From contig NC_086097.1 in assembly GCF_963921235.1 (NCBI RefSeq), positions 74,464,001 through 74,528,000 on the forward strand: a DNA stretch of 64,000 nucleotides. The letters are read 5' to 3'. Source of the stretch: Mobula hypostoma (taxonomy: Eukaryota). The position numbers were made by a program, and so were the translations under genes. Below the pieces are notes generated by a model that worked only from the letters and a program-made list of their open reading frames with translations, was not told where the DNA came from and did no database searches. Positions 28,870 to 63,229 of the stretch are shown piece after piece (the first letter of the stretch is position 1; each line of letters starts with the position of its first letter).

Positions 28870-30960
28870 ACAAAGTATTCATTAAGGACCTCTCCTCCAA
28901 CTCCAGGCACATTCTTCAGCTCCTTCCTGGCTACCTTGTAACTCTCTAGAGCCCTGTCTGATCCATGCTTCCAAAGTTTTAAGTAAGCTTCCTTCTTCCT
29001 GTTGACCAGATGTTCCACATCTTTTGGCAACTGTGGTTCCTTCACCCTCTTTCCCTGCCTCTATGGGACAAACACAGCCAGAACACCATGCAAGTGTTCC
29101 CCAAACAAGCTCTGCATTTCCATTGTGCACTTCCTTCAGCATATTCCATTCCCAACCTACACTCACAAGTTCCTGCCTAATAGCATCATAAATCCTCCTC
29201 CACCAATTTCCCATACTATCTGCTCCTATCCTTGTCCAAGGCTATCATAAATGTCAGGGAGTTGTGGTCACTGTCTCCCCCCACCCACCGAGGATCTGGC
29301 ACCTGACCTGGTTCATCATCTAGCACCAGATCCAGTATAGCCTCTCATCTAGTTGGCCTGTCCATATACTGTATCGGGAACCCCTCCTGAACTCACCTAA
29401 CAAATTCCAACCTATCTAAAACATTTTCACTAAGGATGAGCAAATCAATTTTGAATCCACCCATGATAATAACCCTGTTATTTCTGCATCTTTCTAAAAT
29501 CTGCTTCCCAATCTGTTCCCCAGAATCTCTGTTGCTATTGGGAGGGGGGTCTATAGAATACACGCAATAAACTGTTCCCTTCGTGTGCCTGACTTCCAAC
29601 ACTGACATAGTAGACAATCCCTCTATGACGTCCTCCCTTTCTGTAGCTGTGACACAATCCCTGATTAAAAATACCACTCCCCCAGCTCTTTCGCTGTCCA
29701 CCTATTTTACTCCCCCACTGTCCTTTTGAAACATCCAGAATATTCAACAGCCATTCCTGCCCTTGTGACAGCCAAGTCTTCGTAATGGCCACAGCATTGT
29801 AGTTTTGTGTACTAAGCTATGACATATGTTCTTCACCCTTATTCATAATACTTCTTGCATTAAAATAGATACACTTCAAGTCATCCCACTGACTGCGAAG
29901 TTGCCCTATTAACTGCCTATCCTGCCTAACAGTTTCTCAACACACTGCATCTATCTTTAAACCAACTGCCCCATTCTCTGCCCTATCTGGTTCCCATCCC
30001 CTGCAAAGCTAGTTTAAACTCTCCCCAACAGCTCTAGCAGACCTACCCAAAAGGATATCAGTCCCCCTCAAGTTCGGATGTAACCTTTCCGTTTTGTACA
30101 GGTCATCCATACCCCTAAAGCAATCCCAATGATCCTGGAATCTGAAACCCTGCCCCTGCACCAATTCATCAATTCATCTGCCAAATCATCCTATACCTAC
30201 CCTCAATGACGTAAGGCCCAGGCAGCAATCCAGAGATTACTACCCTTGACGTCCTACTTTTCAGCTTCCTATCTAACTGTTATATTATCGCTCATGGACT
30301 TCACTTTTCTTAAATATGTTTTAAGTACCAATGTGTATCATGTCTTCCTTTAGAATGCTGTAGACCCAACCAGATGTGTCTCTGACCCTGGTACCGAGAA
30401 GACAGCACACCATCCAATAGAATGCCATAGAATCATCTGCTCCTCTAATATTGATTCCCCTATCACCTTTCTTCTTTTGTTCCTTCAACTTTTCTCCCCC
30501 CTTCCTTTCTCAGCCACAGAGCCAGTCTCAGTGCCAGAAACTTGGTCACAGTGGCTTTCCCCGGCAGGTTGTACTTCCAAATAATATCCAAAGTGGTATA
30601 ATTGTCATTGAGGAGAAAGGACACAGGGGTATTCTGCACTGTCTGTCTGTTTACTTTCCCTCTCCTGACACTCACCTGCCTCCTGCCACTTAGGGGTGAT
30701 TACAGCCCTGTAGCTCATATTTATCACTTCCTCATTCTCCCGTACAAGATGAAGTTAATCTAGCTGCACCTCCAGTTCCCTAACATAGTTTAGAAGGACT
30801 GCTACTGGATGCACTTCATGCAGATGTAGTTATCAGGGAGCCTGAAGGTATCTCAGAACTCCCACATCTGACATGAAGGACATACCACTGACCCCGGCCC
30901 CATTCTCACCACACTAGCTAGAAAGAAAGAAGGAAACATATCTTAGGCGCTGCCTCTCCT
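28870..30960 (-). mobile_element. Old, deleted CR1 LINE including ORF1 (zinc finger and esterase remnants) and APE remnants
   Basis: Minus strand CPSCQMWE...NYICMKC (~30810-30885), AITKTWLSQGQEW, FYRPP, IIMGGF; ORF1/ORF2 junction TTTAAAC-TAG at 30018-30009. Confidence 0.8.
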
Positions 30961-58690: not shown

Positions 58691-59318
58691 AATGACCTGT
58701 GATATTCAACACATCAATATTGTACATCTTATTGACTTTATAGGAAATGCAAAAAACTCCTATGACTGTTCTCTCCACTGACTAAACCACGAAGAATAAA
58801 TTAAGACCATAAAATATAAAAGCAGAATTAGGCCATTCAGCCCATCGAGTCTGCTGTGTCATTCAATCATGGGCTGATCCAATTCTTCCCGTCATCCCCA
58901 CTCCCCTGCCTTCTCCCCATACCCTTTGTTACCCTGGCTAATCAAGAACCTATCTATCTCTGCCTTAAATGCACCCAATGACTTGGCCTCCACAGCCACT
59001 CATGGCTACAAATTCCACAGATTTACCACCCTCTGACTAAAGTAATTTCTCCGCATCTCTGTTCTAAACAGACGTCCTTCAGTCCTGAAGTCGTGCCTTC
59101 TTGTCCTAGACTCCCCAACCATGGGAAATAACTTTGCCATATCTAATCTGTTCAGGCCTTTTAACATTTGGAATGTTTCTATGAGATTCCCCCCTCATTC
59201 TCCTGAACTCCAGGGAATACATAGAAACATAGAAACATAGAAAATAGGTGCAGGAGTAGGCCATTCGGCCCTTCGAGCCTGCACCGCCATTTATTATGAT
59301 CATGGCTGATCATCCAAC

Positions 59319-62318
59319 TCAGAACCCAGCCTTCCCTCCATACCCCCTGACCCCTGTAGCCACAAGGGCCATATCTAACTTCCTTTTAAACATAGCTAAT
59401 GAACTGGCCTCAACAGTTTGCTGTGGCAGAGAATTCCACAGATTCACCACTCTCTGTGTGAAGAAGTTTTTCCTAACCTCGGTCCTAAAAGGCTTCCCCT
59501 CTATCCTCAAACTGTGACCCCTCGTTCTAGACCTCCCCAACATCGGGAACAATCTTCCTGCATCTAGCCTGTCCAATCCCTTTAGGATCTTATACGTTTC
59601 AATCAGATCCCCCCTCAATCTTCTAAATTCCAACGAGTACAAGCCCAGTTCATCCAGTCTTTCTTCATATGAAAGACCTGCCATCCCAGGAATCAATCTG
59701 GTGAACCTTCTTTGTACTCCCTCTATGGCAAAGATGTCTTTCCTCAGATTAGGGGACCAAAACTGCACACAATACTCCAGGTGTGGTCTCACCAAGGCCT
59801 TGTACAACTGCAGTAGTACCTCCCTGCTCCTGTACTCGAATCCTCTCGCTATAAATGCCAGCATACCGTTCGCCTTTTTCACCGCCTGCTGTACCTGCAT
59901 GCCCACTTTCAATGACTGGTGTATAATGACACCCAGGTCTCGTTGCACCTCCCCTTTTCCTAATCGGCCACCATTCAGATAATAATCTGTTTTCCTATTT
60001 TTGCCACCAAAGTGGATAACTTCACATTTATCCACATTAAATTGCATCTGCCATGAGTTTGCCCACTCACCCAACCTATCCAAGTCACCCTGCATCCTCT
60101 TAGCATCCTCCTCACTGCTAACACTGCCACCCAGCTTCGTGTCATCCGCAAACTTGGAGATGCTGCATTTAATTCCCTCATCCAAGTCATTAATATATAT
60201 TGTAAACAACTGGGGTCCCAGCACTGAGCCTTGCGGTACCCCACTAGTCACCGCCTGCCATTCTGAAAAGGTCCCGTTTATTCCCACTCTTTGCTTCCTG
60301 TCTGCTAACCAATTCTCCACCCACACCAATACCTTACCCCCAATACCGTGTGCTTTAAGTTTGCACACTAATCTCCTATGTGGGACCTTGTCAAAAGCCT
60401 TTTGAAAATCCAAATATACCACATCCACTGGTTCTCCCCTATCCACTCTACTAGTTACATCCTCAAAAAATTCTATGAGATTCGTCAGACATGATTTTCC
60501 TTTCACAAATCCATGCTGACTTTGTCCGATCATTTCACCGCTTTCCAAATGTGCTGTTATCACATCCTTGATAACTGACTCCAGCAGTTTCCCCACCACC
60601 GACGTTAGGCTAACCGGCCTATAATTCCCCGGTTTCTCTCTCCCTCCTTTTTTAAAAAGTGGGGTTACATTAGCCACCCTCCAATCCTCAGGAACTAGTC
60701 CAGAATCTAACGAGTTTTGAAAAATTATCACTAATGCATCCACTATTTCTTGGGCCACTTCCTTAAGCACTCTGGGATGCAGACCATCTGGCCCTGGGGA
60801 TTTATCTGCCTTCAATCCCTTCAATTTACCTAACACCACTTCCCTACTAACATGTATTTCGCTCAGTTCCTCCATCTCACTGGACCCTCTGTCCCTTACT
60901 ATTTCTGGAAGATTATTTATGTCCTCCTTAGTGAAGACAGAACCAAAGTAATTATTCAATTGGTCTGCCATGTCCTTGCTCCCCATAATCAATTCACCTG
61001 TTTCTGTTTGCAGGGGACCTACATTTGTCTTTATCAGTCTTTTCCTTTTTACATATCTATAAAAGCTTTTACAGTCCGTTTTTATGTTCTCTGCCAGTTT
61101 TCTCTCATAATCTTTTTTCCCCTTCCTAATTAAGCCCTTTGTCCTCCTCTGCTGAACTCTGAATTTCTCCCAGTCCTCAGGTGAGCCACTTTCTCTGGCT
61201 AATTTGTATGCTACTTCTTTGGAATTGATACTATCCCTAATTTCTCTTGTCAGCCACGGGTGCACTACCTTCCTTGATTTATTCTTTTGCCAAACTGGGA
61301 TGAACAATTGTTGTAGTTCATCCATGCAACCTTTAAATGCCTGCCATTGCATATCCACCGTCAATCCTTGAAGTGTCATTTGCCAGTCTATCTTAGCTAA
61401 TTCATGTCTCATACCTTCAAAGTTACCCCTCTTTAAGTTCAGAACCTTTGTTTCTGAATTAACTACGTCACTCTCCATGTTAATGAAGAATTCCACCATA
61501 TTATGGTCACTCTTACCCAAGGGGCCTCTCACGACAAGATCGCTAATTAACCCTTCCTCATTGCTCAAAACCCAGTCCAGAATAGCCTGCTCTCTAGTCG
61601 GTTCCTCGACATGTTGGTTCAAAAAACCATCCCGCATACATTCCAAGAAATCCTCTTCCTCAGCACCTTTACCAATTTGGTTCACCCAGTCTACATGTAG
61701 ATTGAAGTCACCCATTATAACTGCTGTTCCTTTATTGCACACATTTCTAATTTCCTGTTTAATACCATCTCCGACCTCACTACTACTGTTAGGTGGCCTG
61801 TACACAACTCCCACCAGCGTCTTCTGCCCCTTAGTGTTACGCAGCTCTACCCATATCGATTCCACATCTTCCCGGCTTATGTCCTTCCTTTCTATTGCGT
61901 TAATCTCTTTTTTAACCAGCAACGCCACCCCACCTCCCCTTCCTTCGTGTCTATCCCTCCTGAATATTGAATATCCCTGAACGTTGAGCTCCCATCCCTG
62001 ATCACCCTGGAGCCATGTCTCTGTGATCCCAACTATATCATAATCATTAATAACAATCTGCACTTTCAATTCATCCACCTTATTACGAATGCTCCTTGCA
62101 TTGACACATAAAGCCTTCAGGCACTCTTTTACAACTCTCTTAGCCCTTTTTAATGCTTGCCCTGGATTTGTCGGCCTGCCACTTTTACTTTTCCCCTTTG
62201 TACTTTTTGCTTCTACGCTCACTTTACACCCCTCTGTCTCTCTGCACTGGTTCCCATCCCTCTGTTGTGAACTAACCTCCTCACACCTAGCCGCTTTAAT
62301 TTGATTCCCACCCCCCAA
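59319..62318 (-). CDS. CR1 ORF2: APE endonuclease plus reverse transcriptase (no N-terminal AUG; frame open from 62339)
   Basis: 999 codons; APE motifs NARS, ITETW, GDFN, SDH; RT motifs YRPVSLTS, YLDFQKAFD, GVPQGSVLGP, FADD; the track start is TTG and the first Met lies in VIMGDFN. Confidence 0.97.
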   Translation of the reverse strand: MGGGNQIKAARCEEVSSQQRDGNQCRETEGCKVSVEAKSTKGKSKSGRPTNPGQALKRAKRVVKECLKALCVNARSIRNKVDELKVQIVINDYDIVGITETWLQGDQGWELNVQGYSIFRRDRHEGRGGGVALLVKKEINAIERKDISREDVESIWVELRNTKGQKTLVGVVYRPPNSSSEVGDGIKQEIRNVCNKGTAVIMGDFNLHVDWVNQIGKGAEEEDFLECMRDGFLNQHVEEPTREQAILDWVLSNEEGLISDLVVRGPLGKSDHNMVEFFINMESDVVNSETKVLNLKRGNFEGMRHELAKIDWQMTLQGLTVDMQWQAFKGCMDELQQLFIPVWQKNKSRKVVHPWLTREIRDSINSKEVAYKLARESGSPEDWEKFRVQQRRTKGLIRKGKKDYERKLAENIKTDCKSFYRYVKRKRLIKTNVGPLQTETGELIMGSKDMADQLNNYFGSVFTKEDINNLPEIVRDRGSSEMEELSEIHVSREVVLGKLKGLKADKSPGPDGLHPRVLKEVAQEIVDALVIIFQNSLDSGLVPEDWRVANVTPLFKKGGREKPGNYRPVSLTSVVGKLLESVIKDVITAHLESGEMIGQSQHGFVKGKSCLTNLIEFFEDVTSRVDRGEPVDVVYLDFQKAFDKVPHRRLVCKLKAHGIGGKVLVWVENWLADRKQRVGINGTFSEWQAVTSGVPQGSVLGPQLFTIYINDLDEGIKCSISKFADDTKLGGSVSSEEDAKRMQGDLDRLGEWANSWQMQFNVDKCEVIHFGGKNRKTDYYLNGGRLGKGEVQRDLGVIIHQSLKVGMQVQQAVKKANGMLAFIARGFEYRSREVLLQLYKALVRPHLEYCVQFWSPNLRKDIFAIEGVQRRFTRLIPGMAGLSYEERLDELGLYSLEFRRLRGDLIETYKILKGLDRLDAGRLFPMLGRSRTRGHSLRIEGKPFRTEVRKNFFTQRVVNLWNSLPQQTVEASSLAMFKRKLDMALVATGVRGYGGKAGF

Positions 62319-62323
62319 CCATT

Positions 62324-63229
62324 CTAGTTTAAAGTCACCTCAGTAGCCCCCGCTAATCTCCCTGCCAGGATATTGGTCCCCCGAGGATTTAAGTGTAACC
62401 CGTCCTTTTTGTACAGGTCACACCTGCGCCAAAAGAGGTCCCAATGATCCAAAAACTTGAATCCCTGCCCCCTGCTCCAATCCCTCAGCCACGCATTTAT
62501 CCTCCACCTCATCGCATTCCTACTCTCACTGTCGCGTGGCACAGGCAGTAATCCCGAGATTACTACCTTTGCGGTCCTTTTTCTCAACTCCCTTCCTAGC
62601 TCCCTATATTCTTCTTTCAGGACCTCATCCCTTTTCCTACCTATGTCATTGGTACCTATATGTACCAGGACCTCTGGCTCTTCACCCTCCCACTTCAGGA
62701 TATCTTGGACACGATCAGAAATATCCCGGACCCTGGCACCAGGGAGGCAAACTACCATCCGAGTCTCTGGACTGCGTCCACAGAATCGCCTATCTGACCC
62801 CCTTACTATCGAGTCCCCTATCACAACTGCCCTCCTCTTCCTTGCCCTACCCTTCTGAGCTACAGGGCCAGACTCTGTGCCGGAGGCAGGGCCACTGTCG
62901 CTTCCCCCGGGTAAGCTGTCCCCCCCAACAGTACTCAAACAGGAGTACCTGTTGTTAAGGGGCACAGCCGCCGGGGTACTCCCCATCACCTTCCTTTTCC
63001 CCTTCCCCCTCCTAACCGTGACCCACTTGTCTGCCTCCCGTGGCCCCGGCGTGACCACCTGCCTTCCACTCCTCTCAGGAGCTGCCAAACGTTCCTCATA
63101 CGGTAACACTTTATTTCCTGGAATCACTCTCATGAATCTTCTCTGAACCCTCTCCAATGTCAATATATCCTTTCTAAAATAAGGAGCCCAAAACTGCACA
63201 CAATACTCCAAGTGTGGTCTCAATATCAT
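62324..63229 (-). CDS. Chimeric ORF: 51 aa of old CR1 ORF2 fused in frame to 250 aa of young CR1 ORF1 (SGNH/GDSL esterase domain)
   Basis: ATG at 63229; RPHLEYCVQFWAP.. up to 63077, then ORF1 with VIGDS, LPGA, HIGTND, DGLH (SGNH blocks I, II, III, V). Confidence 0.85.
   Translation of the reverse strand: MILRPHLEYCVQFWAPYFRKDILTLERVQRRFMRVIPGNKVLPYEERLAAPERSGRQVVTPGPREADKWVTVRRGKGKRKVMGSTPAAVPLNNRYSCLSTVGGDSLPGGSDSGPASGTESGPVAQKGRARKRRAVVIGDSIVRGSDRRFCGRSPETRMVVCLPGARVRDISDRVQDILKWEGEEPEVLVHIGTNDIGRKRDEVLKEEYRELGRELRKRTAKVVISGLLPVPRDSESRNAMRWRINAWLRDWSRGQGFKFLDHWDLFWRRCDLYKKDGLHLNPRGTNILAGRLAGATEVTLN
62327..62333 (-). promoter_or_regulatory. Candidate -1 ribosomal frameshift slippery heptamer U_UUA_AAC at the ORF1/ORF2 overlap
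   Basis: ORF1 ...ACT TTA AAC TAG; the -1 frame TTT AAA CTA GAA TGG TTG GGG... is ORF2. Confidence 0.7.

Follow-up and report, generated by a model that had tools for sequence, protein, structure and literature searches.

In the −1 frameshifting systems described in the available part of the review by Atkins 2016, the open reading frame (ORF) for structural proteins precedes that of the polymerase, which is in the −1 frame, the ribosome changes frame on a phased X_XXY_YYZ heptamer, and a pseudoknot or stem-loop is used. Among long interspersed nuclear elements (LINEs), SART1 and L1 are described in partially available sources as having a bicistronic RNA with low ORF2 output, L1 with a spacer between its non-overlapping ORFs, and the accessible portion of PMC3894237 calls LINE ORF2 translation an open question. 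A review figure legend in the available part of PMC5911963 states that TRE5-A and TRE3-A of Dictyostelium require a −1 frameshift for ORF2 translation; these are APE-type LINEs like CR1, from which they differ in host kingdom and ORF1 type. In most vertebrates the dominant retrotransposon is CR1, according to the available part of PMC13343379 (Stuart 2026). Here we analysed a CR1 element on the minus strand of a 64,000-nucleotide (nt) stretch of the ray Mobula hypostoma (contig NC_086097.1, positions 74,464,001 to 74,528,000; hereafter the window). The canonical vertebrate CR1 of Stuart 2026, as far as that source was available, resembles it in its esterase ORF1, its ORF2 with APE endonuclease and reverse transcriptase (RT), its microsatellite tail and the same ORF1/ORF2 junction; the available main text contains no mention of frameshift, overlap, start codon, translation or slip and leaves the expression mechanism unaddressed. 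The window CR1 very probably makes its endonuclease and RT as an ORF1-ORF2 fusion by programmed −1 frameshifting at U_UUA_AAC. It would share the phased heptamer and the ORF order with the systems of Atkins 2016 but, unlike them, it is a non-long-terminal-repeat retrotransposon without a protease, and its junction has no predicted pseudoknot or stem-loop.

The element is a 5'-truncated copy of a young family, F1, and occupies 59220..63076 of the window (minus strand, as are all features below), as delimited by identity to full-length copies (99.9% from 63076 onward) and by its 3' tail. It retains the 3' part of ORF1, an SGNH/GDSL esterase ending in ...EVTLN* (62324..63076; Pfam Lipase_GDSL_2, E 1.6e-16), and ORF2 in the −1 frame with 1006 codons for a basic linker, the APE endonuclease and the RT (59319..62339; RVT_1, E 1.1e-33; Exo_endo_phos, E 3e-12). 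Full F1 copies have an ORF1 of 311 amino acids (aa) with a CxxC zinc-finger-like motif at the N-terminus. The last two ORF1 codons belong to the slippery heptamer U_UUA_AAC in ORF1 phase (62327..62333), and directly 3' of it stands the ORF1 stop TAG (62324..62326), which the −1 frame reads through CTA (Leu). The original prediction of this arrangement agreed with the sequence in every coordinate: T TTA AAC at 62333-62327 is followed by TAG at 62326-62324, the ORF2 frame is open over 62339-59319 (1006 aa) and preceded by TGA at 62342-62340, its first in-frame ATG is codon 209 (61715), and the nearby ATG at 62322 opens a +1-frame run of 8 codons before TAA (62315..62322; out of the ORF2 frame in 30/30 F1 copies). 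The endonuclease motifs NARS (codon 80), ETW (107) and YRPP (180) lie upstream of this first ORF2 Met, whose AUG falls within the endonuclease domain. The heptamer is the sole strictly phased X_XXY_YYZ among the 311 ORF1 codons of a full-length copy. The string TTTAAACTAR occurs twice in the window vs 0.65 expected, which is within chance as 15/100 shuffles reach 2, and both matches are CR1 ORF1 stops.

This organisation is shared by the whole family. When the best 40 of 1341 genome candidates were scored, 40/40 were 100% identical over 411 nt (one being the window itself), and ORF2 was open across the 563 codons covered in 29/30 F1 loci. Because the copies are identical and ORF2 is open, the AUG-less overlap is the state of a recently active family and not a product of decay. 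An extra G that might have shifted the 62322 ATG out of frame in the window copy was considered and rejected, the same six G being present in 30/30 F1 copies. A SART1-type UAAUG with its AUG in the ORF2 frame was found in 0/30 F1 copies. Nor does F1 match the L1-type layout of non-overlapping ORFs and spacer, as its ORFs overlap at the heptamer and the first Met is codon 209.

To the F1 junction we compared those of further families in the ray genome, four of which were fetched by whole ORF1 proteins (LN end included) and one by DNA including the junction, which biases the sample mildly; a tblastn query lacking the last 12 residues served to anchor the positions. At the register predicted from the esterase motif, the exact heptamer was present in 30/30 copies of F1, 23/30 of F2, 24/30 of F3, 14/25 of F4, 22/25 of F5 and 9/25 of F6, the last being an old family in which indels displace the anchor. 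The heptamer is followed by TAG or TAA in six of six families (TAA in four), the six differ in flanking sequence, and protein identity among F1-F5 over the last 125 codons is 50-68%. Relative to the heptamer, the −1 frame contains the ETW motif in 30/30 F1 copies and in 14/21, 17/22 and 5/9 located copies of F2, F3 and F4, where it was not locatable in 9, 8 and 16 loci, respectively. At codon level, just 1/14 invariant six-fold-degenerate columns of F1-F5 has the same codon in all families, and this is the terminal Leu TTA, a codon used for 9/69 Leu residues elsewhere. The preceding codon encodes T, C, D, A or G with a third base that is always T, and is among the 4/15 highly variable columns that share a third base. 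The AAC codon is invariant too, but so are 4/11 two-fold columns. In LN proteins, the residue before LN is one without a U-ending codon in 1/64, vs 44/64 and 31/64 one and two positions earlier. Judged by these codon comparisons, the heptamer is conserved at the nucleotide level beyond what the protein would need. Since ORF2 has no usable start codon and the slippery sequence is conserved, ORF2 is likely made by a −1 slip.

The history of the active family bears on the start codon as well. The F1 ORF1 is 73-74% identical to that of F3 and the F1 endonuclease region matches two of three F3 copies at 92-93% identity and the third at 81%, with a switch point just past the junction that adds 54 nt (18 codons) in frame. 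The active family is a chimera, in which a new ORF1 module together with its junction was fused in frame to an F3-type ORF2 (window 62326-62253; L064, L084, L089), and a second, degenerate G-tract at 62253..62264 is the likely crossover mark between the two. The ORF1 swap preserved the frame from heptamer to ORF2 and lost the F3-type UAAUG. As the swap removed it, the in-frame AUG of F3 would not be needed by the active family.

The junction extends well beyond the ray. Of 49 homologues whose tail beyond the DGLH motif is short, 39 have an LN end, and the named ORF1 proteins that finish this way belong to sharks, rays, coelacanth, frogs, lizards, a snake and turtles. A heptamer-string search of the available part of the Stuart 2026 supplement, limited to the first 400 letters per cell and conditional on the string itself, gave 23 matches, 22 of them listed; most are junctions, many with the G-tract, and about six are unrelated. 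The junction taxa are alligator, crocodile, frog, chimaera, coelacanth, rays and sharks, and none of the junctions listed is from a bird or mammal. In a distant lineage with ~33% ORF1 identity and an RT 51% identical to that of the window, KN stands in place of LN. From the KN protein ends A_AAA_AAC was predicted before the loci were read, and 3/3 metagenome loci (L124-L126) then carried it, 77 nt after the start of the catalytic Asp codon, whereas the window heptamer is 6 nt nearer, at 71. In these loci the −1 frame holds ORF2, whose first endonuclease motif (NARS/NTRS) has no Met ahead of it, ORF1 extends 10-12 codons past the heptamer, and across KN proteins the preceding residue has an A-ending codon in 42/42. 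The original prediction had named conservation of heptamer and frame across CR1 subfamilies as a test, and each of its comparative tests was favourable: CR1 families and vertebrate classes share the heptamer, the stop and the −1 frame, and distant relatives use a different slippery heptamer at the equivalent register.

Among 150 representatives (50% identity) with 99 usable tails, we counted 34 LN*, 11 LN further out, 8 KN, 7 FF/FL-type and 39 other ends. The 39 other tails include 9 QGN* and 1 SGN*, from which G_GGA_AAC is predicted, and beside this prediction we cite the list of heptamers most shifty on mammalian ribosomes in the available part of Atkins 2016. A quick tree of 106 esterase cores, built with the terminal motif removed, placed GN, KN, LN and FF/FL ends in one 20-row clade (Shimodaira-Hasegawa-like approximate likelihood ratio test, SH-aLRT, 97), and contained a 13-row clade with named ray-finned-fish proteins in which 12 rows lack the motif; its lenient labels mis-score the frameshifted rows P0208, P0234, P0276, P0295, P0300 and P0306 and mis-label P0236, whose true end is FLN*. 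Elements of the ray-finned-fish clade probably use another ORF2 mechanism. Its members P0080, P0085, P0088, P0089, P0231, P0257 and P0286 have no slippery-compatible end and constitute a natural negative control. Viral contigs scanned with three alignments gave no match, a plasmid search gave none either, and a search of genome contigs gave 8 loci with no usable junction (L094 and L098 inspected). P0020, P0095, P0127 and locus L094 are animal CR1 ORF1 filed under bacteria or flatworm and are probably host contamination.

With frameshifting as the mechanism, most ribosomes would terminate at UAG and release the 311-aa ORF1p, while a minority would slip with tRNA-Leu and tRNA-Asn on UUA AAC, read CUA next and complete a fusion product (about 1,310 aa) that is joined as ...EVTLN-LEWLGGGNQ. 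A low slip efficiency would fit the low ORF2p:ORF1p ratio expected of LINEs. A search for longer fused proteins, a weak test, gave 5 gene models with one esterase-endonuclease read-through (P0336) and no full fusion. The ray gene models P0022, P0054, P0055, P0336 and P0337 (RPS24, TMEM204, HAO2 and VSIG10L2 isoforms) contain CR1 ORF1 or ORF1-endonuclease pieces, which are probably annotation artefacts.

Besides the heptamer, the conserved elements of the junction are the stop that abuts it and a downstream G-run: a run of at least 4 G starts 8-11 nt past the heptamer in most copies of F1-F5, vs a background of 174/3830 positions (8-13 nt window). In the window, the candidate stimulator is the G-rich tract GG TT G6 T G3 at 62307..62320, whose G-run begins 10 nt past the heptamer. 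A G-tract about 6 nt after the heptamer had been put forward as stimulator; its GG does start at 6 nt, but the conserved feature is the G-run at 8-11 nt, and no canonical structure is predicted for it. The suggestion that it acts as a G-quadruplex (G4) was not established, as a weak two-tier G4 was predicted in only 2/6 families folded with the G4 option. The ribosomal pause would most likely come from the adjacent stop plus the unstructured G-run 8-11 nt downstream and not from a pseudoknot, the G-run serving perhaps as a protein-binding site or as a weak two-tier G-quadruplex. In the available part of Atkins 2016, frameshifting of porcine reproductive and respiratory syndrome virus (PRRSV) is stimulated by protein, nsp1beta with poly(C)-binding protein, and G-quadruplexes stimulate −1 frameshifting in synthetic constructs, with no natural case known. 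In PRRSV a trans-acting protein thus replaces RNA structure, whereas the CR1 motif is a G-run and its protein partner only a candidate. The PRRSV binding motif reportedly has a spacing of roughly 10 nt.

Several findings weigh against frameshifting. Minimum-free-energy folding with a simple pseudoknot scan of 12 junctions showed, for the families as for L124-L126, no stem-loop or H-type pseudoknot that exceeds the shuffled background (z −0.7 to +2.1; 0.55 to 1.38), and thus none at 5-9 nt downstream, the junction had no match in Rfam, and no specific long-range pairing partner was found for it. The four-GG G4 pattern is common in F1-F3 and present in 4/14, 5/22 and 3/9 copies of F4, F5 and F6. 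Some helix-face positions likewise have few of the excluded residues (1, 4 and 3 of 64), and the counts of LN proteins come from rows that are related and not independent. At the DNA level the A_AAA_AAC type is represented by 3 loci only, and G_GGA_AAC is read from protein ends alone. Two families moreover have a start codon at hand, F2 with a Met just before NARS and F3 with a UAAUG that overlaps the stop and has its AUG in the ORF2 frame in 22/24 copies (loci L061-L090). The absent pseudoknot would point to a stimulator type unknown in nature as of the 2016 review. Two candidate structures were tried and rejected: a weak pseudoknot of L102 (0/30 shuffles) was not shared by its relatives, and long-range pairing between the G-tract and the C-rich 3' tail showed no cognate preference, 38-275 of about 500-560 other windows pairing better.

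The start codon of F3, found also in the catshark consensus in the available part of the Stuart 2026 supplement, argues for termination-reinitiation, in which ORF2 would be restarted at a nearby AUG as in the SART1-like UAAUG, or without AUG as proposed for mammalian L1, to yield a separate ORF2p. In the accessible portions of reviews, SART1 is said to use UAAUG coupling and L1 to initiate without dependence on an AUG; the vertebrate ORF1 stop sits right at the start of the ORF2 frame, and near-cognate codons are present in the ORF2 linker. Family members with an in-frame AUG had been named beforehand as evidence against frameshifting, and F3 provides them in part, but the active family took over the F3-type ORF2 without the UAAUG, which occurs in 0 copies of the other five families. 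Reinitiation would further leave unexplained the phased X_XXY_YYZ and the fixed TTA and AAC codons, as well as the switch to A_AAA_AAC where ORF1 ends 10-12 codons past the heptamer. We regard it as unlikely to account for ORF2 expression, although in F3 and F2 it possibly operates alongside frameshifting.

Even less credence is given to the junction being kept for some other reason (protein C-terminus, DNA- or RNA-binding site, packaging signal) with ORF2 made from a spliced or internally started RNA. Such a reading would accommodate the missing canonical stimulator, the G-run might be bound for purposes other than translation and the TAG of the window junction be a possible splice acceptor; however, the sequence upstream of the junction is purine-rich, four of six families are without the AG for splicing because their stop is TAA, and the first in-frame AUG is located inside the endonuclease domain. 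In four contig-only runs, none of the 15 joints listed passes over the heptamer, a result to which no weight is attached. A binding site would not be expected to vary between U_UUA_AAC, A_AAA_AAC and the predicted G_GGA_AAC and yet keep the slip rule, and the protein end varies (LN, KN, GN) while codon choice stays fixed. Polymerase slippage, by which one base would be added at the junction in some RNAs and the ORFs brought in frame, appears extremely improbable. It could draw on the A6 run of the distant lineage and on the single database proteins P0019 and P0336, which read across the junction where a one-base change gives a continuous protein, but the vertebrate site is only T3A3 and each read-through protein is a single copy or a gene model. 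Moreover, the 40 best-scoring copies (chosen for likeness) have no added base, though slipped RNAs would be recopied into the genome.

The full-text literature searched yielded no report of a frameshift for CR1, most subscription papers being outside the scope of that search. A 1997 turtle CR1 paper is said to describe overlapping ORFs, so that an earlier suggestion of frameshifting is possible. In their available parts, Atkins 2016 makes no mention of CR1 and PMC3894237 none of frameshifting. As far as the literature was searched, −1 frameshifting is thus new for CR1, with a LINE precedent in Dictyostelium. The conserved slippery site makes the question of LINE ORF2 translation directly testable with a 100-nt reporter. 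If frameshifting is confirmed, CR1 ORF2p would be joined to a membrane-associating esterase in a Gag-Pol-like fusion, the ORF2 starts annotated for CR1 would be wrong, and CR1 vectors or assays that give ORF2 its own AUG would use a non-native protein. More tentatively, and with considerable doubt, −1 frameshifting might be ancestral in esterase-ORF1 CR1 across animals and older than the shark/bony-vertebrate split, with repeated switching among the most shifty heptamers, and in vertebrates be driven by the stop plus an unstructured G-run, as a first natural case stimulated by a G-run or G-quadruplex.

The assignment of the element to CR1 agrees with the vertebrate CR1 traits it displays, an SGNH esterase ORF1 and an ORF2 with APE and RT (Pfam), an 8-nt tandem-repeat tail without poly(A) and frequent 5' truncation, 12/30 F1 copies being intact up to the ORF1 start region. 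The tail in the window comprises three TTTCTATG units (59220..59243), a CR1-type 3' microsatellite without poly(A). In a comparison by eye, the window junction resembles LINE/CR1-labelled consensus rows, and the closest named ORF1 protein is from Mobula hypostoma (99%). The young CR1 is hosted by the RT-coding 3' part of an old CR1 fragment (63400-63077 and 59219-58850), whose frame is broken after YEERLAA and picks up again near YSLEFRR; a clear target duplication is absent. An old, degraded F6 CR1 at 30700-29230 has esterase and endonuclease remnants and the same junction, its heptamer and TAG lying at 30009..30018, and more degraded CR1-like esterase and endonuclease fragments are present at 39406-38956 and 35618-35356.

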